A stretch of 39,191 nucleotides of DNA from Asterionella formosa (Eukaryota), in NCBI GenBank assembly GCA_002256025.1, contig NKIB01014977.1, forward strand, positions 1 to 39,191, given 5' to 3'. This document shows, piece after piece, positions 5,651 to 37,546 of this stretch (its first letter is position 1; each line of letters opens with the position of its first letter). Both the position numbers and the translations under genes were made by a program. The notes below the pieces were generated by a model. That model worked only from the letters and a program-made list of their open reading frames with translations, did no database searches and had not been told where the DNA came from.

Positions 5651-6066
5651 GGTACCTGTTATGTAGCTGGTACCTGGTACCAGGTACTAATCCATTTATT
5701 ACATACATGTACATAAAATGTACCTAGTACCAGGTACCGCTCAGGGCGTGGTATGCCTGCTATGTACACTCTGGTATTGTACAGGGGTACATGCCATGTC
5801 CAATACACAATGGTACCAGGTACCTGGTACCTGGAAGCAGGGTACGGTAGACTACCTGGTAACAGGTACCGGTACCAGGAGCCGGAAGTAGAGTCAGGGC
5901 ACCTGGTACAAGGTACCAAAGCAAGTTGCGGTCATTTTGCTTAAAACTAACATTTTAATCTGGGATAAAAAAAGCTAAATCTTTAGTTTCACCAAAACTA
6001 CCTTAACTTGCCAAATATGTCACCAATACCAAACCGGAACCGGAACCGGTACCCATACCTGGTACG
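5651..6066. repeat. GGTACC/CCWGG palindrome-rich array upstream of RPL32
   Basis: More than ten GGTAC/GTACC units, e.g. ggtaccaggtacctggtacctgg at ~5812-5834, plus accggaaccggaaccggtacc near 6034. Confidence 0.85.
5921..6011 (+). mobile_element. ~91 bp MITE-like element (family D), copy 1
   Basis: Ends GCAAGTTGCGGT...ACCTTAACTTGC. Reverse-complement match to 15147-15238 and direct match to 15354-15443. Confidence 0.75.
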
Positions 6067-8102: not shown

Positions 8103-9568
8103 CTTGAGACGAAATATTGTGAGATAATTTGGGCCAAGAATTTGTAAATGTGTGTCCTATAAACGAGCATAACAATAGGAGGTCCTGTTGAAGTTCAAGT
8201 TATCAAATACTCCGGAGTATTTTTCAACGCTAAGCAGCTTTCCGAAGTGTAACATTTCATACATACTTCCAAAGATAAAATGACCGCTTCTCCGATGTAT
8301 AGTTATACCTTCAATACCATCTGTTCTGAACAATCCCATTGTCATTTGTACCTTTCGATTATCCGTTATATGATTATGCATACGGTGGATTGTGACTACC
8401 GGTAAGTCATATGCGTATGCTGGTACAGAGTAAATCATACATACCGGCACTTTTTTAATGAAGCATAGACGACAGTATGTAGCTATAACAACGCCGGGAA
8501 TGGATATCATGTACCGGTACATAGGTATTATATAGGTATTCACTTTTTATTCGACCGAGAATGCTACCCGTAGTGGAAGCTAGTGCAATATGGAATTCAG
8601 TTGGAGTACAGCACCTCACATACCACAGCACAATGGAGTGGTGGCAAAGATGTTTTCATGTGATGCTAAGCATGCGCTGGCAATGATGATATCTGCTGCA
8701 AGGACCAAAGAGATGCAAGCTAAATTATGGGCTGAAGCGACAAAAACATCAGCAATACTAGGAAATTCCCTTCCAAATGATGATGCTGTGGAAACTGGTG
8801 AGCAAGCTGAGAGACCACAGCACAATTTGACAAGGTTGAAAAATTAAATGAAACGGCTGCGAATTTAAGTGCCAATCACGATTGAAGATGATGAAATTAG
8901 AATAAGAACATGCAGTAAGACAGATCAAGTGGCATTAAATGCAACACTAGTGTCAGATCCTGGAGAACCCAATACATTTCGGAAATCCATGGATGATAAA
9001 AACAGTGGCAAGTGGGAACCATCATCAGCAAGAGCAGAAATCAAAACCTTCTTAACAAGAGATGCATGGCATGAGTTTCCAAGAGAAAATTTGAAGGACT
9101 GTAAACCCATACCCGTGAAATGGATATTCAAGGTGAAGGATGAACAAGATGTTTCTAAAAGGTTCAAGAGCAGGATTGTGCTGAAGGCGTCTGCAAATAA
9201 AAATATGATACTTATAAGATCAGGGGTATCATACGATAACTGGCACAGAATTTTTCTGTACATGATACATGATATTTCGTTATATGTCTGTACATGATAC
9301 ATGATATTTCGTTATATGTATGATAAATGCATACTATGAAAGTGAACAGGCTAAGCTTACTCATAATAATCAACCCACCATATAATTATCAAAACCTCAT
9401 TCTATGATGTACATTCTTTTATCATATATATATCCTTATGTGATGGTAACTCTAATCGAAATAGCTGTTAAAAATAGGTTGAAATAGATTGTAATTTTAC
9501 TGTTAAATCATTTTTATGTTTCTACATTTGGTGCGGTTAAGCAGCCAATGTTCCCTTTTTCTACAGTC

Positions 9569-10933: not shown

Positions 10934-11628
10934 TGCTGAAGACAATACACGCCCGAGGTGGTCTCATGCCTGCGAGTACACATGTGTTCGAGGCTAGGTG
11001 GCGCGAGAAGGTTGACCATACAAGTGGCGTGCAAGAAGATCACCCTCCGAGTGCCATCCCAGCCGAGTACACATGTATATGAGAAGGCAAGTAGCCGCCG
11101 AGAAGGGTATTGTTGAGGCGATTCCCGCTCTAGCTATCGTCGCGTCATTCGCTTACCTACTGCCCACAAATAAAGCATAAATGTCAATTTTAGCATACTA
11201 TTGCCCATCATACAAAGTTATTTCGTTTATTTCCTATCTTCACCTCGAAAATTGTCTAAGGTTCGATATTGCCCATCATTAAAATATATTTTGAATATTT
11301 CATATGTTCGCATTTTGGCAAGACAACAGACGCCAATTGCCCCTCGGTTTTCCAGCCCTGGGATTGCCGAAATTTGCAAGGGGTCTACTTAAGGAAAGCA
11401 CTTTATATACTCTACAGATTTTAATAATTTATATCTAGAACTCACCTCGGTTTTTTCTTCTCCTGAAAAGTGGACTGAGGCAATTCATTTTTCACCATGC
11501 CAATCGTTGTCCATCATGACCGGTTTGAAGCGAAATCAGTTCAGTGATGATGCCAGTAGCGATTCGTTGTCAAACGGATGCGGTTGGTTGTTGTATTGCA
11601 TGTCTTCTCAAGGGATTCATGTAGTCGC
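10934..11628. mobile_element. Family B hairpin-ended element, copy 1 (truncated, nested in family A copy 1)
   Basis: Starts TGCTGAAGACAATACACGCCCGAGG and is collinear with 29539-30155 and 35466-36140 until ~11628. The right terminus is absent. Confidence 0.9.
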
Positions 11629-12987
11629 TTTGTTTAATGCAACACAAATGATTCAAATTCAGATTGAGCGGTTGTTGATGTTTGCAGCCAGTGATGGTAT
11701 ACATACAAAAAATGTATCGATATATGTACTTACAATATTCTCTATGATAATAAATATTATTCATATAAGATGATAAATCGAATTTATATGATCATATGAT
11801 CGCCATTATAAGATGCATCATACGAATTAGATGTTTTCTATTTGCAGACGGGGCTATGTGATGGTCCAAGGAGTGGACTACACAGAGTCTTTTTCACCGG
11901 TCACAACAGACACAACAATCTGGACAGCAATTGCTATGGCTGTATATCTCCAGAATGAAGAATGGACAATTGAGATGATAGACAATGAAGCAGCATTCTT
12001 AAAAGCAGAACTTGAATCAGACAGGCCAGTGTATGCAGAATGGCCAGAAGGCATGTTGGAACTCGGATTTATAACAGAAGAAGAAAAGAAGGAATTTTGC
12101 ATCAAGCTGACAAGAGCCATGCATGGTGGAGTCGATGTCCCAAGTCTTTTTATGAAGACACTGTGCAAATACTTAACAAAAGAAATGAAGATGATTCAGA
12201 GCTTGGTGGATCCATGTTTGTATTACTGAAAGAGTAAAGTGGATGAAGTCATTCTGATGGCTGTGGTACATGTTGATGACGTTTAATTGATTGGAACAAG
12301 AAAGACAACAATTGAAAAGTTCAAGTTGCAATTGCAGAAGAGGCTTAATATTTCGGATTTGGGAAGATTGAAGAAGCATCTTGGCATATGGTAAGAACGG
12401 AGTACTGATAAAAATGGTGAAATCTTCATTGTGTCTAGTATGACAAAGTTGGAGGATGAAATAAGTCATTCGAAAATATAATTCGGAAGAATGTTAAGGC
12501 AACAGATACACCAGAATATCCAAACAAGTTCCTCAGGAAGAATCAAGAAGAACTATTAAAATTGACGGAATATCGTTTTTATGGTTGGAAAAGTAATGTA
12601 TTTGATGACAAAGTTGGCACCAGATTTGGCAAACCCTCCGCAAGAGTTGGCAGAACATCTGTCAAACCCACCAGGCAAGGAGCACTGGAAAGCACTTGAA
12701 GGACAAATCGTTGGACACATTAAAGAAAGATACTATGATGGGTTGACATGATATTAGAGCCCAAAGGAGCTGAGGCCTATATCATTTATGGACTCAGACT
12801 ATGCAAAGCATTTTGATGTCAGGGCACATTTCAGCCGAGAACTTGAAGATCAAGGATATTTGATGGTATAGTTTGTATGATTGGACGAGAATTCAGCTGA
12901 CATAATAAGCAAGAACTTTCCAGAGAAGTTGCACACAAAGCACACTGCAAGGATAAGGAATGGGAATCTTGAATGTTGGAGGGAGGA

Positions 12988-14949: not shown

Positions 14950-15352
14950 CTACCGGTAGTAGTATTTGCTTGCACGTAATATAGGGACCGGTTTGCGTAT
15001 ACTGGAGTAACAGTACCTGGTACCAGGTACAAGGTACCTGGTGGTACTTGTATAATTCAACAACAGAGACCGGTAGTCAGTTTCTACTTTTTTAGGTTTC
15101 CATTATCATACTGTTGTACCTTGGGGTCGTTCTGCCTCAGCTACCAGCAAGTTGCGGTAATTTTGCTCAAACTATAAAGATTTAGCTATTTTTATCCCAG
15201 ATTAAAATGTCAGTTCAAGCAAAATGACCGCAACTTGCAAGCACCGGTAGATTTACGTTTGGAGTACCACCACCGACCATAACAGATACCAGGTACCAGG
15301 GTACTCTATCAGTATCACTCCCTTTTTTACATGTTATGTAGGACCAGGTACC
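14950..15352. repeat. GGTACC/CCWGG palindrome-rich array upstream of the PDI gene
   Basis: gtacctggtaccaggtacaaggtacctgg (~15013-15040), taccaggtaccagggtac (~15287-15304), ccaggtacc (~15344-15352). Confidence 0.8.
15147..15238 (-). mobile_element. Family D MITE-like element, copy 2
   Basis: Near-perfect TIRs GCAAGTTGCGGTAATTTTGCT...AGCAAAATGACCGCAACTTGC. The interior is the reverse complement of 5921-6011. Confidence 0.8.
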
Positions 15353-15353
15353 A

Positions 15354-15443
15354 GCAAGTTGCTGTCATTTGGCTTAAATAAACAATTCAATATAGGATTA
15401 AAGATAGCTAAACCTTTAGTTTCAGCACAATTACCGCACCTAC
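15354..15443 (+). mobile_element. Family D MITE-like element, copy 3 (decayed)
   Basis: GCAAGTTGCTGTCATTTGGCTTAAA...AGCTAAACCTTTAGTTTCAGCACAATTACCGCACC aligns with 5921-6011. Confidence 0.7.
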
Positions 15444-16837: not shown

Positions 16838-17686
16838 TTAGAAGTCGACAAGGCCAAGGTTACTTCCAACTAAAGATATCTTCCGGTGGTCATCTTCCAA
16901 GCGGTCATTGTACAAGCCATCATTATCATTGTACAAGTAATGTTGATCAAAGGAATTAGACCTGGGACTCGGGCGTCGCCATAAGTACCAAGCGAACATA
17001 CCAAGAATGCCGATAGTACCAATCAGGATCAAGAAGCTCCACAAAAACGAAGCCAGAGGGGTTGAAAGAGCTCCCCTCTGGGTCACATTCTTGGACCAAG
17101 AGGTGACTATATTGCCGGCACACATCTTAGTGTTGGCACCACCTAGATCAAACTTGTTTGGGTCCTTCGATGAATGGAAACCAACAGACACATAAGGAGA
17201 GAAGGCTTTATCATCGGAGGAGCTGGAAGAACCCGATGAGCTACTCCAGTAAAATTGAGTCGACAGGGTGTAAGAACCCAATGAAGAACACGAACTCCCG
17301 CTGGTAGATTTCAATGTCCCAAGGTAGCAGAGGCGAGCATTTTTATAGACAGTGACCGTCTCATTATTTCCCGATGCTGTCAGTGTCAACATTGGATCGA
17401 CACCGTTCAAATCATTGATAATATCGAACGTGATTGTGATCTTAGCCTTGTCTCCGGCTTTACAGGTTTCGCTGTCGCGGTACTTGCCGCTTCCGTAGTA
17501 GAAAGTTCCTGAGCTGTCGCATCCTACGGAAATGCTAGTAATTTGTATGTCGGAGTCGGAGCAGAGAGCGAAGGAGTTGTAACCATCTTGTGATGAGCTG
17601 CCACCACCTGAATAGCTTCCGTCGTTTGCTAAACTGATCCTTGCAGTAAGCAGCAGTACGCTGACCTGAGAGAGCCTCCGAAGCAT
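16838..17686 (-). CDS. Signal peptide + Cys-containing ectodomain + single TM protein (paralog 1)
   Basis: Likely start MLRRLSQVSVLLLTARISLA; CDSSGTFYYGSGKYRDSETCKAGDK; FDLGGAN; TM FLWSFLILIGTIGILGMFAWYLW. Clearly homologous to 32339-33064. Confidence 0.9.
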   Translation of the reverse strand: MLRRLSQVSVLLLTARISLANDGSYSGGGSSSQDGYNSFALCSDSDIQITSISVGCDSSGTFYYGSGKYRDSETCKAGDKAKITITFDIINDLNGVDPMLTLTASGNNETVTVYKNARLCYLGTLKSTSGSSCSSLGSYTLSTQFYWSSSSGSSSSSDDKAFSPYVSVGFHSSKDPNKFDLGGANTKMCAGNIVTSWSKNVTQRGALSTPLASFLWSFLILIGTIGILGMFAWYLWRRPSPRSNSFDQHYLYNDNDGLYNDRLEDDHRKISLVGSNLGLVDF

Positions 17687-18078
17687 TGGCGTTGTTTTCG
17701 TTTTGATTAGCGATGAATGATCGTGAAAAACGTTTTCGGCTTGTAAAGGTATAAAGGGGATTCGCGTAAACACTTAATCAGAAGCGATGAGTTGAAAAGG
17801 CTCAGTTTGCGGTCAACCAACGAAGCGAAGAATGAAATTGCCTTAGTCGATAGGTTTCGGCAAAATCGACTGAAGTCATCAAGCCACTGTTTGTTCACCT
17901 GCTGCCCCGTCTCCTCACTGTTTGGTTTCACTTCTGTTCGGTTAAAGCGGAGTTAAATTTCTCTTCATGGTCGTATACAATATTCCATATATGGCGATCA
18001 TTTGCAAACATGCTGGCGGCCCTTCCATACGTCGACCTCGTTTTCTTATTTATCATATATAAATACAACAGTAAACTT

Positions 18079-18335
18079 CCGGTACCAGGTAGAGTGCCAG
18101 GTAACGAGCGATAGCCAACCATGGCTAAATAAAGTCTATACCGGTACTGGTTCTACCGGTAAAAAATTTCATTCAGAATAAAACAATGTATATATATATA
18201 TTTCAGATCTAGAAATATGAAAACAAGGAGGAGTAGAATGGAAGGACGTGGGACAGTACATGTACTCTAAGTGGTATGCAACCTTGGCTGATGGGTGAAG
18301 AGTGGACTATCAGGTACCAGGTACCAGGTACCTGG
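18079..18335. repeat. GGTACC/ACCGGT palindrome-rich array upstream of paralog 1
   Basis: ccggtaccaggta, taccggtactgg, caggtaccaggtaccaggtacctgg (18311-18335). Confidence 0.75.
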
Positions 18336-18548
18336 TGAGCGATCCTGCACATCGATACAGATGTATATAGGGTTAGGGTTATATCAATTATATCAGAACT
18401 CGAGTAACACCTATTGTATACTTTGCTGTCAACTTGGGAAACAAGTTGTACATAAGATTAATTAGCTCATATATTCAATGAATACTACTACTTCTAGTTA
18501 GATACTTCACTTTGAATTCAAAAAGAGTCCATTTAGAAGAAGACAAAC

Positions 18549-27150: not shown

Positions 27151-28255
27151 TTCGTTAATAACACCATGTTCTGTATGGATATGACTGTTCCTATTAATTC
27201 TCTCACATTCTTTGATGATTGAGAACGTTTACGTGATTTATTATCATATTTGATTCACCTATGATTGTGGAATCTTCATATGCGCTGGAAATTAATGCTG
27301 CTGAATATAATTACTATGTGAATATTGAAACAGTGGTGAATAAACAGATTTATGTAAGAACTATGCAACGGTCATGTTTGCGAACTATATTGGATAAATA
27401 TCAAACATTATTTAATGGAAAATTAGAAGTTTATCCTCATAAACAGGTTCATTTGGAATTATTATCAAATGCCATTCCTCGTCATCAACGAGCAAATCCT
27501 GTCGCTCATATTCATTTAGAAGTTTTCAAAAGCGAATTACAACGGTTGTGTGATATTGGAGTCCTACAAAAATGTGGTGCTTCTAAATGGGCGTCTCCCA
27601 CTTTTATTGTTCCAAAAAAAGATGGAAGTGTCCGATGGGGTATCAGATTTTCGTGAACTCAATAAAGTCATCAATCGCAATTTAAATCCTTTGCCTCGAA
27701 TACAAACTATTCTCACTAAACGTTCTGGATATGTATTCTTCACCAAATTGGATGTTTCTATGCAATAATATTCTTTCGCATTAGATGTGGAGAATCAAAA
27801 TTTGTGCGTTATTTCCACTCCATTTGGTTTACATAAATTTTTACGTCTCCCTATGGGGTGAAACAATCATCTGATATAGCACAAGAAACTTTGGAACAGA
27901 TTCTTAGGGCTTTAGATCATGTGAAAATTTATTTTGATGACATGGGTTTTTTTCAATGAATTTTTCGGATCACATTCATCTATTGGAAACTATTTTACAT
28001 TGTTTACAGACAAAATGGTTTTATAATTAATCCATCTAAGTGTGAATGGGCAGTCCAAGAGACAGATTGTTTGGGCTATTGGTTAACTCCTAATGGACTA
28101 AAACCTTGGTCTAAAAGTTCCAAGCATTGATTAATATGTCTTCACCTACCAATCTTAAACAAGTCAGATCATTTCTTGGTGCTGTTACGTACTATCGAGA
28201 CATGTTTCCTAGACAATCTCATGTTCTTGGACCACTTACAAATTTAATTGGAACT
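27151..28255 (+). mobile_element. Degenerate Ty3/gypsy retrotransposon, part 2 (end of protease, RT)
   Basis: FVNNTMFCMDMTVP continues LTID from 20334. RT motifs: WASPTFIVPKKDG, SDFRELNK, PLPRIQ, FTKLD, TPFG..FLRLPMG, YFDD. Truncated before RNase H. Confidence 0.95.
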
Positions 28256-28260
28256 AGTTG

Positions 28261-29339
28261 AAAGGCTGCACCCAACTTGTCCTTCACCCAAATCTTTAAC
28301 AATATTTTCGGAAAGAGATGAGCTTCAAGGCATAGCTTGCTTAAGGGATTAAAAAACAATGGGATGATGAGAAAGGAGATGATTCGTTTAGTTATGGATT
28401 TTACTGCATGTTGTATATGGAAGCAAGTTGAGAATCACTTGGACTTTCTGATCTGCGCTGGCAAGTTTCATAATTTGAAGCGTGGAGGTCGAACATTTTC
28501 TGCACAGAAGACAACTACAAAGCATTTCCAAATATCAATTGAGCAACAGCTCTGCTGGCATGGAAACATAGAATGAGTAGTTCAGTGGCTGCTCTGAAAG
28601 CCCATTTTATGCGCAATGTCGATGAGACTGGAGTAATGGCAAACCTTGGGATAAAAGTGATGAGAGCCTTGTCAAAGAGAATACAAGAAAAGAATACTGA
28701 TGATTTTTGGGACTAAATTTCAATTGTTAGAATCGGCAATGCAGCAGGTTCCAGTCGTGGTACTTGGATCATTCTTGCATCTGGCAAGGGAATGACAGTT
28801 AAACCTCTTCAAAATAATGAGGATACGATTGCTATGTGGACAAACACGCAGCTCCAGGACATGTTGAGGTATTTCACTGACCCTCGACCAGTGAATGTCA
28901 TGAAATTGGACAAAGAGAGATTGAGAAATGCTGTTAGAGCATCAGTTCGTGTCTGTTGAAAGGAGAGGGCTACTGTCAACCCCGTAGCATCAGTTTAAAA
29001 ACTAAACTAGAGTCGAGAGGAGTTGAAGCACACTAGACTACATAATTGCATGTGATTCTACCGTGTTAAATATTAAGCTAGTACATCTACCGTGCCTTTA
29101 TTTGTTTCTATTTCTCCCGTAGCACGCCCGTAGGGCGTGGTACATAGCGAATTGGTAAGGATTCTGGGATTCTCGAAAATGGAAGTTTTTGCGGAAACGA
29201 CCACAACTTTAATAATATGCAATTTTTTAAAAAAATGGAAAAACGTATTAGATAGTACGAAGGGTCAGCTATCGATTCCTTACATTAAATTGCGGTTTTA
29301 AAGAAAATGGGGGGTGCACGACTTTGTGCCCCAAGAGTG
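28261..29339 (+). mobile_element. Degenerate pogo/DDE_1-like (Tc1/mariner superfamily) transposon, right portion
   Basis: KRGGRTFSAQKTTTK...QQLCWH, HFMRNVDETG, EKNTDD..ISIVRIGNAAGS resemble the pogo-type first Asp and following block. A possible right TIR ...GTGCCCCAAGAGTG ends at 29339, followed by TG rather than TA. Confidence 0.7.
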
Positions 29340-29451
29340 TGTCGAACAGGTCAGGTCAACTCCACTCCAGGTAGGAGACAACCGATACCGCTATGTACCG
29401 GTACACTTTTAGCAGCATCACAAGCAACCTTCACCATACCGGTAGCATTTT

Positions 29452-31635
29452 CCGGGTTGTGTCGGCCTGTCTTCCTATAGGTAAAACTTCTTTTTTGAGT
29501 TTCACCAACATTTTTGTTGAGCCAGTCAGCCAACAAACTGCTTAAGGCAATACACGCCCGAGGTGGTCTCTTGCCTGCGAGTACACATGTGTACGAAAAG
29601 GCAAGTACCGGTAGCCGCCGAGAAGGGTATAGTTGAGGCAACTCCCGCTCTAGCTATCATCGCGTCATTCGCCTACCTACTGCCCACAAATTTAGCATAA
29701 ATGTCAATTTTAGCCTACTATTGCCCATCATATAAAATATATTTTGCATGTTTCCTATCTTCACCTCGAAAATTGCCAAAGGTCCAATAATACCCATCAT
29801 TAAAGTATATTTTTTATATTTCATATGTTCGCATTTTGGCAAGACAACAGACGCCAATTGCCCCTTGGTTTTCCAACCCTGGGATTGCCGAAATCGGCAA
29901 GGGGTCTACTTAAGGAAACCAATTTATATACTATTCAGATTTGAATAATTTATATCTAGAATTCACCTCTTTTTTGTTCGTCTCCTGAAAAGTGGACTCA
30001 AGCAATTCACCTTTCACCATGCCAGCCAATTGTCGTCCGTCAAGACCGGTTTGAAGCGAAATCAGTTCCGCGATGACGCCAATAGCGATTCTTTGCCTAA
30101 CGGATGCGGTTGATTGTTGGATTGCTTGTCTTCTCGAGGTATTCATGTAGTCGCATCGTCCATATTTCGTCGGACAAATGATGATATCGATACATCTGAT
30201 GTTGGTGGCAAGTTTTTGCTCCGGTCATGTATGTAATGATGCTTAACGGATATTCTACGGGTACCGGCCGGCAGTCATCTAGTCTACATACTTTCGTGGT
30301 ACTAAAAACAACCATGCATGGTTTAAGCTATGCTTTAACGCTTACTTTGAACACGTAATAATATAATTTCTGTAGACTCGGTATTATTTTTACGAGACCT
30401 GAAATGTTGAATTATATCGTTCACATGTTCATTGATTTTCGTACCGTATGCCCGATTTCGTCCTCACAAATATAGTTCTCACTCTATCTTGCCTGCCTTT
30501 GCTCTATTCGGGCTTGCAATAGGCAACGTTCATCTTTCTTTGATCCCATCGTCTGCTGCATGTTATGCTAGTTGAAGCGGATCGGTGAGTACAACAGTGA
30601 AATACTGAATGTGGATTGTAGATCGTAATTATTGGGCCAACTTTCCGATTTGATTGCTTGCGTGGTTTGTTTTGATCGCTTCAATCGTTGTTTGTCGTTA
30701 CGCACTGTTGTTTTCTTTCGATTGTACATATCTACATAAGAACCAAAGCATTTATCAATGACTAATCATTGAGATGTGGTATTGTGCCGTTGTTGATCAT
30801 ATTTGTTGATTTGTATAGTCGTTGACAATGATGTCAATATAGCCGCCAAGCAATGCTTTTCTTGTACTAACGCGCTTTGCTACATTTCTACTACGAGTTC
30901 GTATCAGAAGCTACATGAATACTCAGCTAGAAAGAGAATCAATAGTGCTGGAGCAGCGTGGCGATCACGCTTGCTCAGAATGGAATGATCAGGGTTGCTT
31001 GTTTGGTGGGCAGCGGAGAGGAATGACTGTGGCGGAAATACTGCTACTGGTGTCAGGCTACTACAGCGATGCGCATGGTTGCAGAAACCAGACCATTTAC
31101 GCTTCATAACGATGCAGGTCTACATTGGGTTGAGCTTTTTTCTTCTTCTTTCGGTCTTCGATTGTGTGGTGATGGAAAGTCAATGTTGCCTGGTGTGTAA
31201 GTACTACAATGATTCACAATGCATACATCTCCATTGGAACTCTTATTTTTTATTTCATTTCTAACCCAAAACAATTTTTTCTATTTCTCATTTGATGCTA
31301 CTTAATACATCGCATTTCATACTTTGGTTGCTCCAAACATCATGTTCTATTTTCATTGATGTTGCATGTTCCAATCATTCTTGTGTGTTTTCCGCTTGTT
31401 GTACCATCTCTATGCATATTACCGTTATTCTGGTTGTCATGCTAAAATCGGCAATTTTATTGCCGAAAAATTCGATGTGCCCCATATTGCCCTTAAATAA
31501 AAATTACTTCAGAAATTACTTAGAGCCTAAAAATTACTTAGAAGTACCTGAATGGCAAGACAATAGCTGGAGCGGGAATTGCTATAGTACTTTATGCTGT
31601 TGCTCCTTGCCAGTTGCAGAAAAATTGGTTTTTGC
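29452..31635 (+). mobile_element. ~140 bp MITE-like repeat (family C) split by the family B copy 2 insertion
   Basis: 29452-29538 plus 31583-31635 align contiguously with 33789-33925. Confidence 0.7.
29539..31582. mobile_element. Family B hairpin-ended element, copy 2 (full length, 2044 bp, non-coding)
   Basis: TGCTTAAGGCAATACACG...GCGGGAATTGC, collinear over its whole length with 35466-37546. The subterminal IR at 29638 pairs with the right end. Confidence 0.93.
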
Positions 31636-32338
31636 AATATTATTATTTTAATACAATGGCTGAGAATTTCCAATAACAGTAAAACCTGAGGGAAGCAGAT
31701 CCCTAAAGGATTCAATACACAGCCACTGGACATCAATCCAAAGGTCTTCCCAATTCCTACTAGTAGCATGCCACAGGGCCACATTGGATTGCTTGCCATC
31801 ATATACTGATGGTGAATTGCAGTCTAGCAAAATCAATTGCTCTTTGATGCTTCTAAATGATGGCTTTCATTTGTCATTGATCTCACGGCAAGATATAGCA
31901 CACAAGGATGATGATCACAAGATAAGCAAACTCAGGTTTGGAAACTTGCTTCTTTCACTTTCTCCAGGAAACAGGTAGGCCAGCCAATCAAAATTCGTAT
32001 ATTGGGCTTGTGTGACTTGTGACTATGGTCATCTTTGTTGGCTCTGATTGCAAACTCTCCAGATGTGCACTCATATTGGCTATGAAAGCCTCCTGTATCT
32101 AAAAATGCTTCGAATTCACGGATTTTCAACAAATAATTGATAAAAACAGGTGCCCTATCTCACATCATAACTTGTTATATCAGAAACTTTTTAATTTTTA
32201 TCTGCCCAAAGGAAATGAACATGAGGACACGAAACATTTACAACCAGTACACATCAATTGAAATTTTTTGTTTAATTCACTTCCACAACATTTTACTACA
32301 ATCTCAAAAGGTTCAGTTGACAATCATACTTTAAATTT

Positions 32339-33064
32339 TCATGAAAGGGCATATAGCTCATGGGTTTGAGGATCGAGGAGACCACTCTTGTCCTCTGTCT
32401 TTTGATGCAACAAAATCATGGCAAAGAAAGCAACCACTACCACAGTGCCCAAGAGAATACCATAATTATTTCCAAAAGTTCCCGCTTGTCGAGAATATGC
32501 AAAATTAATAGATCCTTCTGCACCACCAGCACCCTCCATGTAGTTATCGCCATTCTCAGTACACACGATGTTGATGCCTCCGAGATCGAAGTCACCGTCA
32601 GCCTCAGTTGAGAAACCAATCTCAACCAGGGGAATAAAGGTGGTTGTGCTGCCTCCTGCAACATAGGGAAATGTAGTGTACTTGGTGAACGAGTAGGTTC
32701 CTGCGCTTCTGCATGACCTTCCGACCCAAGCCTTGCACAGATCGACTGAATCTGACTTGTATAATCGCTCGCTGTCGGTGTATATCCCCATGGTGGCATA
32801 AATCGTCATATCGTCGTCCACGTCTGCGAAAACTTCAAGAGTCATCGAGATAGCAACCCTGTCTCCATACTCACAAGTTGCGCTGTTTCTGCGTACCCCA
32901 TTTCCATAGTAATACGTGTAAGGACTATTGCACAACAGTGAAAGGCTGGTAATGGCAAGCACACTGTTATTGCAGAAGACATCAACAGCATCGCCACTAC
33001 TATCTGCTGATTGTGCGCGAAGAATTGAAACGACGCTGCAAACTAAGAGCAGATACCACTTCAT
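32339..33064 (-). CDS. Signal peptide + Cys-containing ectodomain + single TM protein (paralog 2)
   Basis: 241 aa: MKWYLLLVCSVVSILRA signal; CNSPYTYYYGNGVRRNSATCEYGDR; FDLGGIN; TM YGILLGTVVVVAFFAMILL. Confidence 0.9.
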   Translation of the reverse strand: MKWYLLLVCSVVSILRAQSADSSGDAVDVFCNNSVLAITSLSLLCNSPYTYYYGNGVRRNSATCEYGDRVAISMTLEVFADVDDDMTIYATMGIYTDSERLYKSDSVDLCKAWVGRSCRSAGTYSFTKYTTFPYVAGGSTTTFIPLVEIGFSTEADGDFDLGGINIVCTENGDNYMEGAGGAEGSINFAYSRQAGTFGNNYGILLGTVVVVAFFAMILLHQKTEDKSGLLDPQTHELYALS

Positions 33065-33569
33065 GATTGTGTATAGAAGTGAATAGTTAAAGAAGATTGC
33101 TGCAAGAGTACTTTGGAAAAGGGAGACTTATTCTCTGGCACCTTGACGAGTCAGTTACTGTTGAGAGGTCTGATCAAATGATAAACGATGATTGGTTTTG
33201 TCAACGAGAACAAGCGATAAGAAATGTTGAATTAATCCTGGCAGATACCAGTATATCCACCCAATGAGATGCCGGTTTGATTGATTTATTCATGACGATG
33301 ATGAGAATAATGCATACCTTCTATATATTTATTACCGTTTGCTACACGATGAAATCAACGATTATATCATGTATTTGATGAAAAGAAGAACGAGTACGAG
33401 CTACCAAGTATATTCTACAGAAATTAGGCGAGGACGCCGAGTAAACAATGGATGAGCATTGGAATTTATTCTATACGTATCTGAAAGGCTATATAAGATG
33501 CAAATAACGGATATTTACGCCTTACAAATTCTCTCAAATATTCAAGACTGAGTTCCTGGGGGTCTACCT

Positions 33570-33760
33570 GTAACCAGAACCGGAGGGTACTGGTACCTGC
33601 TACCCTGGTAGCTGTACCACGTAATAAAATAAAAACTGCTTTGAAGCTCTGTTTCACTAAAAAGTTCGATCGATTACCGGTACCAGGGGTACCTGGTACC
33701 GGTAGTTCAACTACCGGTAAAGACAGAAATATTAATTTCACGTCTGCTTACCAGGTACCT
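33570..33760. repeat. GGTACC/ACCGGT palindrome-rich array upstream of paralog 2
   Basis: ggtactggtacctg, ttaccggtaccaggggtacctggtaccggtag, taccaggtacc. Confidence 0.8.
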
Positions 33761-33788
33761 TCATCGCAGTCAAATGTTTGCAGTTTCC

Positions 33789-33930
33789 GGGGTGCTTTCG
33801 CTTTTTCCTATAGTAGGTAAAACTTCTTTTTCGAGTTTCACTGACATTTTTGTTGAGCAGTCAACAAACTCCTTCAGTACTTTATGTTGCTCCTCGCCTA
33901 TTTCGGAAAAAGTTGGTTTTGCAACACCCC
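33789..33930 (+). mobile_element. Family C MITE-like repeat, uninterrupted copy (empty site for family B)
   Basis: GGGGTG...CACCCC ends with a further imperfect IR (ctttttcc...tagg / ccta...ggaaaaag). Confidence 0.6.
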
Positions 33931-35465
33931 ACGACAGTGGTAAAGCTTGACAACTTTGCTAGCACCATGATGGTACGTTTTGAGACTAACACAGACCATA
34001 AAAATAGGTTTGTTGTAAATAAGCCAGCAAATATGGTTGCTGCATTTGAACCCCTAGCTCGAGGTAGGGTTATAAAAATAATATTGAGTCAGACTAATCA
34101 AACACGTCCTTTTCACGTATAAATCAAATATGTATAACGCTCAATGGAGCTTTCACCAATAGAGACCCTTTCCATAGGCTTACATACAGTCATCGGAAAA
34201 AGTAGGGGGGTAGGTCCACTCTATATATAGTCAGTATATAGGATCTGGTCAGAAACTGCTGAAATGAACTTATGCTAAAAAGACTCGAAAATTCGGGGGA
34301 AATCTGTTTATTTGGTATAGTAAAAAAAAGAAGTTCCTTTCTGCAGTTTCTCGCCAGAAATTATATGGTCTGCTGATGCTATTTGAAAGTTACCTAGCTA
34401 TGTATCGAAATCGCCTTCAGACCCAGCCAACGTTGAGCTATCGTCGTCCAAAAATTCGACAAAATCGACCTTTTCTAGGGTCGCCAAAATATTGGAATCA
34501 GAATTACTGTGAACTGAAACGTCATCATCGGAATAGTAGTAGTCGTGTGCCGGAATTTCTCCTATCCAAAAAATCCATTGTAAGTTCCCACTTCCAAATC
34601 TATAATATGATTGGTGAACATGAATTACATTCCTCCGCTTGATTGGCCCAGTTTGCAAGGTCTTGCAAGCCCACACCAGCCACATTGGATAAACCTGTAA
34701 CATTTTCTTGGGTGTGATGACGCACAGTCCGGTACTATATTCATTACGGGTACCAGTAGATGATCATTATTGAACATTCACGTACCACTCCTTGAGTGCA
34801 CTTTCATACATTAGCCGAGCCACCGGGTCGTATGCATGACACATAGTCGTCGATCGGAGTATAGATTGTAGTACCCGCATATACACATGAGAATATTTAG
34901 AATCCAATTATATATATATTCCGTGATTTGAATATGTTGAATGGATTCATTGTTATCACATAAAATCGTCAAACGGAGTACCGGTATAGAGAGTCCATGC
35001 ATATGTGTTGATCGCATTTTAGGGTATATATACATACAGCGATAAAGAATGTTTTTATACATATTAAGCGATTTCGACAAGGAATCTAAGTACGTATTCG
35101 CAGATTTCCACTGATTTAAATATTTCAAATGGAATCACGTCATTCCAAAATTGTTAATAAAATTCTTAATGCCAGGTAATTTTGGCAACCCTAAGCAATA
35201 TTTTATTTTTTGCCTAGGGTTTCAAATGCAGCAACCTTAAATGCATAATTTTTAATAGCTTTGTTCACGTAAAAAGTCATTACAGTCAGTACCAAAGTCT
35301 ACGAGAAATTCACGTAGCCTTTACCTGAGCAGTACCTCGTCCCCACCATGGCGGAAGTTCCTCTCCCCAACGACACCATAGCGGATATCACTCTCAACAC
35401 TCTTGTTCATGTATCGAAACTGGCTGCACAACAACGAAAGCGATTGCCCAAACGAGCTGGAATCA

Positions 35466-37546
35466 TGCTGAAGGCAATACACGCCCGAGGTGGTCTCATG
35501 CCTGTGAGTATATGTCCGGCGCCACTCGTACGGTCAACCTACTCGCGCCACCCAGCCTCGAACACATGTGTATTACGAGAAGGCATGAAGCCACCGAGAA
35601 GGGTATTGTTGAGGAAATTCACAAAGTAGCTATCGTTGCGCCATTCGCTGACCTACTGCCCACTCATAAAGTGTAAATGTCAATTTTAGCTTGCTATAGC
35701 TGCCCATCATATAAAATATATTTCGTATATTTCCTATCTTCACTTCGAAATTTGCAATGGGTCCGATATTGCCCATAATGAAAATACATATTTTTCTATA
35801 TTTCCTATGTTCGCATTTTGGAATTACAATTTGTGCCAATTGCCCCTCGGGTTTCCAGCCTTGGGATTGCCGAAATCGGCAAGGGGTCTACTTAAGGAAG
35901 CCATTTTATATACTCTACAGATTTCAATAATTTATTCTAGAATTCACCTCGTTTTTGTTCGTCTCCTGAAAAGTGGACTCCGCCAATTCACCTTCCACCA
36001 TGCCGATCGTCGTCCATCATGACCGGCCGGTTTGAAGCGAAATCAGTTCAGTGATGAGGACAGTAGCGATTCTTTGTCTAACGGATACGGTTGGTTGTTG
36101 GGTTCTTGCTTCTCTTCTCGAGGGATTCATGTAGTCGCATCGTCCATATTTCGTCGGACAAACGATGATAGCGATGCATCTGATGTTGGCGGCAAGTTTT
36201 GCTCCGGTCATGCATGCTGTGGTGATGCTAAACGGATATTCTACCAGTACCGGGTAGTCATCTAGTAGCCTACATACGTACGTGGTACTAAAAACAACCA
36301 TGCATGGTTTAAGCAAAACTTTAACGCTTACTTTGAACACGTTATAATATTATCTCTTTAGACTCGGCATTATTTTTACGAGACTAGAATGTTAAATTGT
36401 TTCGTTCACATATTGATTGATTTTACGTACCATATGCCCGATTTCGTCCTCACAATTATAATTCTCACTCTATCCTGCCTGCCGTTGCTCAATTCGGGCT
36501 TGCAACAGGAACTTTCGACTTTCTTATGAGCCCATCGTCTGCTGTGTGTTACGCTTGTTAGAGCGGATCGGTGAGTACAACAGTGAAACACTGAATGTGA
36601 TCGTAGATACTAATTGTCGAAGTTCCGATTTGATTGCTTGCATGGTCCGTTTTGATCGCTTCCATCGTCGTTTGTCGTTCCGTGCTGTCGTTTTGTTTCG
36701 ATTGTATCTATCTACATAAGAACCAATGATGATGACTACTCTTTGACGACATATTGTTGTTGATCGTATTTGTTGATTTGTATAGTTGTTTACCATGATG
36801 TCAATATTGCCGCCAAGCAATGCTTTTCTTGTACTAACGCACTTTGCTACATTTCTACTACGAGTTCTTATCAGAAGCTACATAAATACTCAGCTAGAGA
36901 GAGTCAATAGTGCTGGTGCAGCGTGGCGATCATGCTTGCTCAGAATGGAATGATCAGGGTTGCTTGTTTGGAGCTGGGCGGCGGAGGAATGACTGTGGCG
37001 GAAATACTGCTACTGGTGTCAGGCCACTACAGCGATGCGCATGGTTGCAGCAACCATACCATTTACGCTACATAACAATGCAGGTCTAAATTGGGTTCAG
37101 CTTTTTTCCTTCTTCTTTTGGTCTTCGATTGTATGGTGATGGAAAGTCAATGTTGCCTGTGTAAGTACTACAATGATTCACAATGCATATGTCTCCACTG
37201 AAATTTCTATTTTTTACTTCATTTCTAACCCAAAACAATTTTTTCTATTTCTCATTTGACGCTACTTATTACATCGCATTTCGTACTTTGGTTGCCCCAA
37301 ACATCATGTTCAATTTTCATTGATGTTGCATGTTACAATCATTCTCGTGTGTTTTACGCTTGTTGTACCATTTCTATGTATTTTACCGTTATTCTGGTTG
37401 TCACGCTAAAATCGTCAATTTTAATGCCGAAAAATTCGATATGCCCCATATTGCCCCTAAATAAAATTTACTTAAGCAATTACTTAGAGCCTAAAAATTA
37501 CTTAAAATTACCCGAATGTCAAGACGATAGCTGGAGCGGGAATTGC
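35466..37546. mobile_element. Family B hairpin-ended element, copy 3 (full length, 2081 bp, non-coding)
   Basis: TGCTGAAGGCAATACACG...GCGGGAATTGC, a direct repeat of 29539-31582. Confidence 0.93.

Follow-up and report, generated by a model that had tools for sequence, protein, structure and literature searches.

Family B, of which copies lie in a 39,191-nucleotide stretch of Asterionella formosa DNA (contig NKIB01014977.1; hereafter the window), is a mobile element some 2.0-2.1 kb long, non-autonomous and of very high copy number. Its ends may be built in the same way as those of DIRS1-like tyrosine-recombinase (YR) elements, an assignment that, judged from sequence, stands about as good a chance of being right as wrong. 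As described by Piednoel et al. (2011; PMC3266345), who annotated 28 such elements, DIRS1-like elements have inverted terminal repeats (ITRs), at least one extension, and two internal complementary regions (ICRs) that overlap on a 3-bp circular junction, the junction being complementary to the triplet with which the element begins and finishes; integration takes place into an identical triplet, and the target is not duplicated. It is the DIRS1-type reading of the hairpin-ended family B that is new here. A gene-less, non-autonomous DIRS member in an alga is not new in principle, since TOC1 of Chlamydomonas has been termed a non-autonomous DIRS retrotransposon (PMC9940879); the two gene-less algal elements are likened by the classification of TOC1 and not by its ends.

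Repeat finding and alignment delimited three family B copies in the window (Table 1), as the first-pass annotation had claimed. By alignment, identity is 87.2% between copies 2 and 3, and 87.5% between copies 1 and 2 over their common part only; the likeness of copy 1 fades near 11633, and beyond this point comes other DNA, in which there is a copia RT fragment. In copy 3 the left arm of the hairpin is partly deleted and the internal complementary site has decayed. Contigs from four public runs, aligned to the window at 85% likeness, indicated the very high copy number of the family and marked both boundaries of copy 2: likeness drops just before 29539 in 46 contigs of run X1 (loose-end agreement 0.37), and on the right just behind 31582 in 20 contigs and behind 31583 in 42 (X1) and 18 (X8) contigs (loose-end agreement 0.40-0.45). 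The largest ORF of copy 2 comprises no more than 128 aa and exits via the right end, and a Pfam search of the copy 2 ORFs returned no match.

Table 1. Family B copies, structural features of copy 2 and its filled and empty sites, in window positions
Feature	Positions	Strand	Remarks
Family B copy 1	10934..~11633	+	truncated, comprising only the left 700 nt, with a long though imperfect hairpin
Family B copy 2	29539..31582	+	full length, 2044 nt, non-coding
Family B copy 3	35466..37546	+	2081 nt; TGC-TGAAG ... GGGAAT-TGC
Left terminal trinucleotide TGC	29539..29541	+	TGC in 10/11 left junctions
Left extension	29542..29546	+	TTAAG in copy 2; TGAAG in the 10 other copies (10/11 junctions)
Left imperfect inverted repeat	29547..29584	+	also left arm of hairpin
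Right imperfect inverted repeat	31544..31582	+	ends in right terminal TGC, 31580-31582
Internal region complementary to left end	29590..29640	+	right arm of hairpin; counterpart of one DIRS ICR
Internal region complementary to right end	29638..29670	+	18/20, reaching ~33 nt; counterpart of the other DIRS ICR
GCA, complement of terminal TGC	29638..29640	+	common to both internal complementary regions; position of the '3-bp circular junction'
Terminal hairpin, short form	29539..29640	+	palindrome centre near 29588
Left flank of filled site	29445..29538	.	member of a low-copy repeat
Right flank of filled site	31583..31637	.	from alignment to the paralogous empty site
Paralogous empty site	33780..33924	.	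TCC at 33870-33872 in place of TGC[element]TGC

Left junctions were compared for the three window copies and for eight metagenome contigs retrieved with a 23-nt left-end word. All three window copies start TGC-T(G/T)AAG, as had been noted before, and the DNA ahead of them is unrelated; among all 11 junctions the only exception to TGC is L001, which has TAC. Further variants of the left triplet, GAC and CGC, are indicated by the read-through ORFs P0027 and P0028. At the other end, the sequence ...GGGAATTGC is constant in both intact window copies, which finish in GGGAAT-TGC and then pass into unrelated DNA (TGC-TAT and TGC-CGT), again in agreement with the earlier description. This end is also recognisable as the peptide SWSGNC in 53 read-through ORFs, themselves selected for ending in SWSGNC. 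The identical trinucleotide at both element ends is a hallmark of DIRS1-like elements, and only 3 bp are fixed, the direct repeat being extended to TGCT or TGCTG in only some copies.

When the left end was aligned with the reverse complement of the right end, using the better-kept left end of locus L003 and transferring the coordinates to copy 2, 27 of 39 nt were found to match, a result equalled in 0 of 2000 shuffles. The weaker repeat near the terminus that had been reported previously is real, and is part of this 39-nt inverted repeat. The left repeat begins at element base 9 and the right repeat at the last base, an 8-nt offset accounted for by TGC plus TGAAG. Inverted terminal repeats with an extension are a second DIRS1-like hallmark, though those of family B are far shorter than those of known members. 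Additionally, the last 20 nt of the element recur on the reverse strand at 29638-29657 and at 11118-11137, each time with two mismatches, 0 such matches being expected by chance, and against a better-kept copy the complementarity reaches ~33 nt (0/2000 shuffles as good), bearing out the earlier claim that the right end pairs with a subterminal repeat at 29638. In element coordinates the complementarity covers bases 100-119 and continues to about 132, and the pairing of bases 100-119 with the last 20 nt is also seen when the entire 2044-nt + strand is folded (MFE). The left end pairs with the opposite arm of the hairpin. Family B carries two adjacent internal complementary regions overlapping on GCA, which is a third hallmark. 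As for the terminal hairpin, the short form in copy 2 is no better than shuffles (-17.6 vs -14.6 +/- 2.7), and other copies have a 214-nt hairpin with five CGAG-opposite-CGAG mismatch blocks, the long hairpin of L006 having a fold of -50.2 kcal/mol vs -32.6 +/- 2.9 in shuffles. The L006 hairpin is strand-biased, with nine occurrences of CGAG and none of CTCG, which fits a single-stranded stage. The right end is without a hairpin of its own, its last 60 nt giving -2.0 (copy 2) and -2.8 (copy 3) kcal/mol, with shuffles at about -3.5 +/- 1.7 (-3.45 +/- 1.8 for the -2.0 fold).

The filled site of copy 2 was compared with its paralogue in the window, the left flank being ~6-10x as deep in run X1 as the unique gene region. 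Positions 29445-29534 align with 33780-33869 (77/94 columns) and 31586-31637 with 33876-33924 (43/53 columns), and between the aligned blocks the filled site has TGC[element]TGC and TAT, whereas the paralogue has TCCTTC, six letters with space for one triplet. The presence of a single triplet when the site is empty, as claimed in the first-pass annotation, would be the parsimonious reading of an alignment that contains other small indels. The internal site of ordinary copies also holds one triplet (...GGGAAT-TGC-CTCAA... on the minus strand), and in P0065, a single ORF of 97 aa, the body of a host copy is followed by TGC, a short and internally deleted guest copy, TGC, and the hairpin of the host copy. 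Insertion into an identical trinucleotide with no duplication of the target, observed at the paralogous and internal sites, is likewise a DIRS1-like hallmark.

Insertions appear to favour sites that resemble the joined ends of family B itself (...GGGAAT-TGC-TGAAG...). Among the 53 read-through ORFs, the codon after the right TGC is TGG in nine (1.9% expected; P = 8e-7) and starts with G in none (10.8% expected; P = 0.006), and 17 go on with W, C or a stop, the expected frequencies being those at the 1086 other TGC sites in the window, and the ORFs being predicted and clustered by identity, such that TGC-TGA (stop) is under-counted and the right-flank nucleotides are only partly recoverable from the residues. 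T follows the right TGC in 42 of 62 contigs of run X1. The tails beyond the right end are element sequence in 6/46; the tail of P0027 starts precisely at the internal site of a copy in inverted orientation, and that of P0049 enters an inverted hairpin, its placement at the internal site being a reading of the first residues of a tail whose alignment begins 18 residues in. Matching nested junctions at the internal GCA/TGC site were found in L007 (as DNA), P0064, P0065 and P0063. This site is one of 78 TGC sites per copy, and the position corresponding to the GCA at 29638-29640 seems to be a preferred point of nested insertion in other copies. The five letters after TGC are those of the guest at 3/3 nested left junctions (L007, P0064 and P0065) and those of the host at 4/4 nested right junctions (P0027, P0049, P0063 and P0065), with the proviso that these junctions come from metagenome assemblies, in which chimeras could form via the 13 letters common to the right end and the internal site. 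In P0020, right end, TGC and left end follow one another, forming a head-to-tail junction through a single triplet.

Transposition of family B could feasibly proceed as follows. A single-stranded copy of the + strand, which would be cDNA under the DIRS model but could also be made by a DNA-only route, would fold and bring its two ends next to each other, annealed to the internal template; joining of the annealed ends would then give a circle with one TGC at the junction. A YR supplied in trans would recombine the circle junction with a genomic TGC, with a preference for TGC sites whose neighbours resemble ...GGGAAT-TGC-TGAAG..., and the inserted element would be flanked by TGC on both sides, one triplet having come from the target. 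With regard to the enzyme, a domain search of 112 window ORFs gave no YR, RT, Rep or DDE match, 53 ORFs at 18.5-29.3 kb searched with E up to 1 gave no YR, Rep or DDE and a faint RVT_1 only, and 25 ORFs of metagenome loci gave no YR, RT, Rep, helicase or DDE match. The 61 matches to the right-end ORF all proved on local comparison to be family B upstream of the end, and a library-wide search returned no credible long protein. The search for an autonomous partner that the first-pass annotation had proposed gave none with a YR, RT, Rep or DDE domain among the window and metagenome ORFs, and the enzyme of family B is therefore one that we infer.

DIRS1-like elements and family B have in common one trinucleotide at both ends with one target triplet and no true duplication, inverted terminal repeats that are extended at one end, and adjacent internal regions that are complementary to the ends and overlap on the 3-nt complement of the triplet. 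In both, an internal complementary region adjoins one terminal repeat, as the ICR of Dictyostelium DIRS-1 adjoins its right LTR (Malicki et al. 2020, PMC7192593), and both insert into older copies of their own kind, a preference described for DIRS-1 in the same study. Unlike DIRS1-like elements, family B is only 2 kb in length, and no RT/RNase H, methyltransferase or YR gene was found in the element or in the ORFs searched from the window and metagenome loci. One of its complementary regions equals the whole terminal repeat in length, giving a hairpin end of 100-214 nt, and a 200-nt hairpin with five evenly spaced CGAG/CGAG (G.A) blocks is not described for DIRS in the portions of the literature drawn upon. 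The host differs also, family B being from a diatom; the consulted parts of the 2011 survey make no mention of a diatom or stramenopile (PMC3266345). The failure to find an enzyme in the ORFs searched, the 200-nt hairpin and the silence of the survey on diatoms and stramenopiles count against the DIRS1-type reading, as do several further features. The inverted repeats are short (~39 nt) and imperfect, whereas the conserved ITR parts tabulated for DIRS1-like elements are about 100-200 nt, and TGC is GC-rich, whereas 23 of the 28 described elements use NTT (PMC3266345). Moreover, complementarity of one end to a site just inside the hairpin of the opposite end is a Helitron2 layout too, and HUH enzymes classically act on hairpins read from a single strand (PMC10288648).

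These last two features also speak for an alternative, namely that family B is an HUH (Rep-type) single-strand or rolling-circle transposon of Helitron2/Helentron- or IS200/IS605-like layout, in which the big hairpin would be read as a single strand by an enzyme that nicks behind TGC at either end and places the element 3' of TGC in single-stranded target DNA. The new HUH-type family envisaged in the first-pass annotation is made less likely by the present data, and, with no enzyme found, we consider it improbable rather than refuted. It would account for the CGAG strand bias of the hairpin and for the lack of target duplication beyond the fixed triplet; the very high copy number is compatible with copy-and-paste, and the single TGC at the P0020 junction is also compatible with a joined single-strand circle. 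However, the targets resemble both halves of the joined ends, as expected of a recombinase that binds both partners. The short target of IS200/IS605-type elements would not predict such a preference for both joined-end halves. No Rep, helicase or RepHel partner was found among the window and metagenome-locus ORFs searched.

According to Bao and Jurka (2013, PMC3627910), Helitron2 elements have ATIRs of 8-15 nt, one of them 5'-terminal and the other just upstream of a ~20-nt 3' hairpin that lies some 20-30 nt from the terminus. Another hairpin, at the 5' end, involves the 5' ATIR; the elements start with a 5' T, lack a repeated motif at their termini and insert in T-rich sites (after T/TTTT). 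Family B resembles Helitron2/Helentron elements in its lack of target duplication, in existing as a high-copy non-autonomous form, and in the ATIR-type arrangement, albeit in reverse orientation, with a repeat of 20-33 nt and a hairpin of 100-214 nt that extends to the very last base. It differs in having TGC at both ends, TGC or TGC-TG rather than T-rich DNA as target, with upstream bases that vary, and, from the fold of the last 60 nt, no second hairpin at the opposite end. Replitrons share with family B short terminal direct repeats, a hairpin near one end and algal hosts, but their repeat is of 6 nt (TAAAGG in Replitron-1), those of Chlamydomonas have fuzzy right ends and variable duplications, and none was detected in any diatom (Craig 2023, PMC10288648), which, together with the presence of all the non-coding hallmarks of DIRS1-like elements, speaks against the HUH inference of the first-pass annotation. 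One triplet at both ends that is complementary to an internal 3-nt junction is not a trait described in the relevant sections of the HUH accounts (PMC10288648, PMC3627910), nor is an internal complement of both ends described there for Replitrons.

A DNA-only, Crypton-type YR element, which would excise and insert as double-stranded DNA with the hairpin and internal site acting only as extra recombinase binding sites, is also rather unlikely. The comparison with Cryptons, made earlier on the grounds of the short terminal direct repeats, does point in the right direction: Cryptons have no TIRs, their short terminal direct repeats are taken as recombination substrates, and CryptonS elements are known from oomycetes and from Phaeodactylum, a diatom (Kojima and Jurka 2011, PMC3212892). 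Both they and family B occur in stramenopile hosts, have no true TIR-plus-TSD signature, and carry a short direct repeat at both ends that may be read as a YR crossover on a circle; indeed, the joined ends of family B make two inverted arms, ~10/13 matching by hand count, around TGAAG. However, Crypton repeats as described measure 4-6 bp (TATGG for the most part in CryptonS), and the elements occur in very low copy number, as opposed to 3 fixed bp and very high copy number, and the available description includes neither an internal complementary region nor a terminal hairpin (PMC3212892). An overlap of 6-8 bp with heterology should, furthermore, mix letters at the nested junctions, as opposed to the uniform guest left and host right letters observed, and strand bias of the hairpin would have no role in a purely double-stranded reaction.

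A DDE element moving by cut-and-paste, with TGC as its strict target and a target site duplication of 3 bp, is highly improbable, since, although an imperfect inverted repeat is present and one triplet when empty vs two when filled is formally a 3-bp duplication, the repeats stand 8 nt out of step with the ends (the right one includes TGC and the left one begins 5 nt past it), the triplet is fixed instead of varying between copies, and neither the window nor the metagenome loci yielded a DDE domain. The right TGC lies within the repeat and within the complementarity to the internal site, indicating that it belongs to the element. The first-pass annotation was thus justified in setting aside a standard DDE element, and its caveat stands that a fixed 3-bp duplication and a crossover at TGC look alike at the sequence level. 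A reading with an 8-bp duplication, in which the element would run from GCAAT to ATTGC, was rejected, as the left 8 nt form a constant sequence that is not matched in the right flanks.

Three copies of Family B, a non-coding mobile element of ~2.0-2.1 kb, were recognised in the window by repeat finding and alignment, with pairwise identities of ~87%. All three begin with TGC-T[G/T]AAG-GCAAT and are preceded by unrelated DNA, whereas both full copies terminate in ...GGGAAT-TGC, the DNA beyond again being unrelated. A 23-nt left-end word retrieved eight metagenome contigs, and across these and the window TGC is present at 10 of 11 left junctions (the exception, contig L001, has TAC) and TGAAG likewise at 10 of 11. 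Contigs of four public runs from four studies, including 122,684 from run X1 alone, were aligned to 29300-34100. Similarity among the copies is lost precisely ahead of 29539 on the left and after 31582 or 31583 on the right, the outer sequence being non-consensus (agreement 0.37-0.45), indicating that these positions are the ends of a mobile unit. Summed contig depth over the element exceeds that of the adjacent gene by a factor of hundreds, a figure that does not equate to copy number, and Family B ranks among the commonest repeats in the genome of a freshwater diatom. The left-end 23-mer had no matches in a viral contig collection. The right-end 18-mer occurs in 101 stretches of genome contigs (88 listed) and at 7 viral-contig loci, which were considered chance words on the basis that blastn revealed no similarity to the element among 108 new loci, while an Rfam search over 29300-31800 returned only a chance lncRNA match (E 0.74). 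Short, internally deleted derivatives of a few hundred nt, comprising the left end and the right-end region, also exist (contig L008 and the predicted ORFs P0050 and P0065); that in L008, on the reverse strand at 2821-3265, is truncated at its right end and contains internal duplications.

Features of the window, with positions on the forward strand
Feature	Position	Strand	Remarks
Family B copy 1	10934-~11633		left part only
Family B copy 2	29539-31582		2044 nt
Family B copy 3	35466-37546		2081 nt
Long-hairpin left arm, copy 1 (pair I2)	10977-11029		92% complementary to right arm
Long-hairpin right arm, copy 3 (pair I2)	35520-35572		92% complementary to left arm
Paralogue of copy 2 flank, first block	33780-33869		77/94 columns aligned
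Paralogue of copy 2 flank, second block	33876-33924		43/53 columns aligned
Low-copy repeat hosting copy 2	29300-29460; 33808-33968		depth ~6-10 times that of unique neighbouring gene
Copia RT fragments (RVT_2)	8869-9297; 11831-12229		
Gypsy/DIRS-type RT, heavily decayed	27237-28130	+	faint RVT_1 match (E 0.094)
Second high-copy element	34035-35238		~25-nt terminal inverted repeats
Paralogous ORFs	32339-33127; 16838-17773	- (both)	30% identity over 225 aa, E 6e-16
Word-rich blocks (family D8)	5664-5850; 15014-15043; 15335-15364; 18308-18337; 33560-33760		near genes
Pair I3, beside D8 blocks	5945-5985; 15175-15215		95% complementary

The ends of the element are related to each other and to an internal site. 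In copies 1 and 2, element bases 100-119 match the reverse strand of the final 20 nt with two mismatches per copy, and the complementarity extends to ~33 nt when measured against the better-kept copy in contig L003. The two ends additionally form an imperfect inverted repeat with each other (27 of 39 positions; none of 2000 shuffles was as good), the left repeat beginning only at base 9, after TGC and TGAAG. A hairpin is formed by the first ~100 nt, the initial TGC pairing with a GCA at bases 100-102 that is also the first part of the region complementary to the element's right end. When the whole 2044-nt plus strand was folded as DNA, the minimum-energy structure paired the last 20 nt with bases 100-119, with the core of the hairpin alongside. 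The first-pass annotation had proposed a fixed TGC at the junctions, asymmetric inverted repeats and a subterminal copy of the right end lying beyond the hairpin, all of which are upheld by these data.

The most complete hairpin, in contig L006, is 214 nt long and has a predicted stability of -50.2 kcal/mol, as opposed to -32.6 +/- 2.9 for shuffled sequences; only this intact form clearly exceeds its shuffles, those of copies 1, 2 and 3 and of contigs L002 and L003 failing to do so. Within it, CGAG recurs at five roughly evenly spaced places in the left arm, each time opposite another CGAG (once TGAG), and CTCG is never present, indicating that the palindrome is broken in a strand-specific manner. 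Of the two arms of the long hairpin, copy 1 retains the left and copy 3 the right, and in copy 2 the middle is missing from each, indicating that the long palindrome decays by different deletions in each copy.

The flanks of copy 2 align with a paralogous stretch in two blocks, between which the filled site reads TGC[element]TGC-TAT and the paralogue TCCTTC. The latter leaves room for a single triplet, as had been surmised from inspection of the sequence. Since the depth of the flanking DNA is several-fold that of the unique gene nearby, the paralogous site is a member of a small repeat family as opposed to one half of a simple two-copy duplication. Contigs of runs X2 and X7 span the right junction of copy 2, showing that the insertion is present in both, and no joint skipping 29542-31582 was found among the joints listed for four runs (204 further joints fall outside that list).

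Metagenome assemblies and predicted ORFs provided further insertions, in which element sequence follows the right end in 6 of 46 tails. In ORF P0020 the left end, from its fourth base onwards, follows the right end to give a head-to-tail junction with one TGC. The tail of P0027 is the hairpin of another copy, in reverse complement and base for base, starting immediately after the internal GCA/TGC at bases 100-102, and that of P0049 is likewise a hairpin in reverse, although here the alignment starts 18 residues in and placement at the same site comes from reading the first residues. P0028 is located at a different TTGC within a hairpin. The mirror junction, in which the body of one copy and ...GGGAAT-TGC are followed by the left end of another, is found as DNA in contig L007 and in ORFs P0064 and P0065. 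For L007, P0027 and P0049, two other events were considered, flip-flop of the hairpin and an inversion in which the 20-nt inverted sites bound the body; both were set aside for nested insertion on account of P0065, where both junctions flank a short, internally deleted guest copy within one ORF. P0065 also constitutes a second comparison of filled with empty sites, as every ordinary copy represents the empty state and has a single TGC there. Each copy contains 78 TGC sites, yet the internal one alone accounts for one or two of the six mappable nested right junctions, and for 3 of 16 left junctions. At all seven nested junctions read, the five letters after TGC are those of the guest on the left and of the host on the right, indicating that exchange takes place at the triplet and not across a 6-8-bp overlap.

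Target choice was examined with an ORF that runs off the element at its right end and finishes in ...SWSGNC, where Cys is encoded by the terminal TGC; two protein searches with this probe recovered many independent copies, the tails of which represent flanking DNA. The codon after TGC is TGG in 9 of 53 ORFs, compared with an expectation of 1.9% from 1086 other TGC sites in the window (P = 8e-7), Cys in five and a stop in three, whereas codons with an initial G are absent from all 53 (expected 10.8%, P = 0.006). TGC-TGA is under-counted in this set, since a stop ends the ORF and such copies collapse into few clusters. At the DNA level, T follows TGC in 42 of 62 contigs of X1, with one tandem pair reading TGC-TGAAC. 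Targets thus tend to resemble the element's own left junction, TGC-TGAAG, although the right junctions of the two window copies read TGC-TAT and TGC-CGT, indicating a preference and not a rule. Left flanks match the right-end arm at a mean of 3.7 of 11 positions, compared with 2.75 at 1264 TGC sites elsewhere (P ~0.03, n = 10), which is at most suggestive of a weak resemblance.

This non-coding design corresponds point for point to that of DIRS1-like elements, as described in the accessible sections of two papers (PMC3266345, PMC7192593). There, inverted terminal repeats are made asymmetric by at least one 'extension'; two internal regions, complementary to the start and the end, overlap on a 3-bp 'circular junction', and the internal complementary region adjoins one of the terminal repeats; and a trinucleotide complementary to the circular junction begins and ends the element. 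Integration is described as recombination of the junction triplet with an identical genomic triplet, without target duplication, older copies being the preferred insertion targets of DIRS-1. The fixed TGC, the asymmetric repeats and the subterminal right-end copy picked out by the first-pass annotation are DIRS1 features under other names. The view with the best support, in which we place about even confidence, is that Family B is a tyrosine recombinase (YR)-type element with DIRS1-type ends, mobilised in trans by either an RNA/cDNA or a DNA-only route. A single-stranded copy of the plus strand, with or without reverse transcription, would fold to bring its two ends next to each other on the internal template; joining of the ends would yield a circle carrying one TGC, which the YR would recombine with a genomic TGC in junction-like surroundings. 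Direct observation covers the end anatomy, the triplet rule, the preference in targets, nested copies and a head-to-tail junction, and the remaining steps of the scheme are inferred.

Other enzymes were weighed against the same evidence. Mobilisation by an HUH enzyme, the option favoured by the first-pass annotation, would account for the strand-biased hairpin, and the layout is common to Helitron2. However, Family B departs from Helitron2 in its target and in the second hairpin, Replitrons are reported to be absent from diatoms in the portion available of PMC10288648, and the preference for sites like both halves of the joined ends is better explained by a recombinase that binds both partners, such that we consider an HUH-type family unlikely. 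A plain Crypton, which would employ the same enzyme class as the DIRS1-type reading, is similarly doubtful, as it would need to explain why exchange spans 3 bp, why the hairpin is strand-biased and how the copy number arose (PMC3212892, in the part accessible). Less probable still is that Family B and an unseen partner represent a link between Cryptons and DIRS elements, namely a YR-only DNA element in which, as in DIRS, an internal template would align the two ends of a single-stranded copy and join them at a 3-nt junction. The enzyme would recognise the 200-nt G.A-studded hairpin in its folded, single-stranded form, in a manner similar to that of integron integrases on attC sites, and such a link would entail a eukaryotic YR with folded single-stranded DNA as its substrate. 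Mobilisation by a DDE enzyme with a 3-bp duplication is very improbable given that the repeats are out of register with the ends. An 8-bp (hAT-like) duplication was dropped on the sequences of the left and right junctions.

Family B itself contains no ORF longer than 128 aa and has no Pfam match. The sole ORF open in both full copies shows 78% protein identity against 87% at the DNA level, with frame-breaking indels, and the body was accordingly treated as non-coding. Pfam searches revealed no enzyme partner among 11, 101 and 53 ORFs of the window or 25 ORFs of the eight left-end loci, nor was one found in the N-terminal parts of 61 ORFs matching the right-end ORF (local check) or among long proteins with the right-end peptide (library-wide HMMER search). 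The sole long protein with that peptide, P0100 (919 aa, 13 stretches), looks to be of low complexity.

Non-autonomous elements of the DIRS order are already known, TOC1 of Chlamydomonas being termed a non-autonomous DIRS retrotransposon in the available text of PMC9940879. A brown alga is reported to carry DIRS/Ngaro-like elements (PMC3145265, in the part accessible), and a preprint assigns the RepeatMasker label 'LTR/Ngaro', an automatic one, in Chaetoceros. The accessible portions of the 2011 survey of DIRS1-like elements (PMC3266345) and of the literature on DIRS/Ngaro and diatoms hold no report of YR elements with DIRS-type ends in diatoms. The novelty of Family B is in its miniature DIRS1-type ends, its giant mismatch-studded hairpin, the GC-rich triplet and the diatom host; automatic tools would leave it unclassified or label it as Helitron-like. 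If the DIRS1-type reading is true, YR elements with DIRS-type ends would be placed in diatoms, and the copies would provide a natural record of recombinase target choice (TGC plus junction-like neighbours, with a hot spot at the internal site), the specificity of DIRS YRs being described as untested in the text available of PMC7192593. The joined ends and the internal site would then also constitute a compact pair of sites for assay with a candidate enzyme.

The window derives from the nuclear genome of a eukaryotic alga, and the public runs containing it are mostly freshwater metagenomes. Its intron-poor genes encode ribosomal protein L32e, a thioredoxin-domain protein and the C-terminus of a glycosyltransferase-28 (MGDG-synthase-like). 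Copia-type reverse transcriptase (RT) fragments are also present, as is a frame-shifted gypsy/DIRS-type RT with the motifs KKDGS..., LPRI... and ...KC.W..., neither having a visible link to Family B. The second high-copy element (GGTTGCTGCATTTGAA... at its termini) has TTAA directly after its right end and ATAT before its left, the left flank of other copies ending in TTAA (loose-end consensus, three runs), and looks like a piggyBac-type MITE. The two paralogous ORFs, which match no Pfam family, begin, as judged by eye, with what resembles a signal peptide, contain conserved cysteines and carry a hydrophobic stretch at the C-terminus. Finally, the D8 blocks, rich in words of the GGTACC/CCAGGTACC type, together with pair I3 suggest a further small family of repeats or else an inverted duplication.
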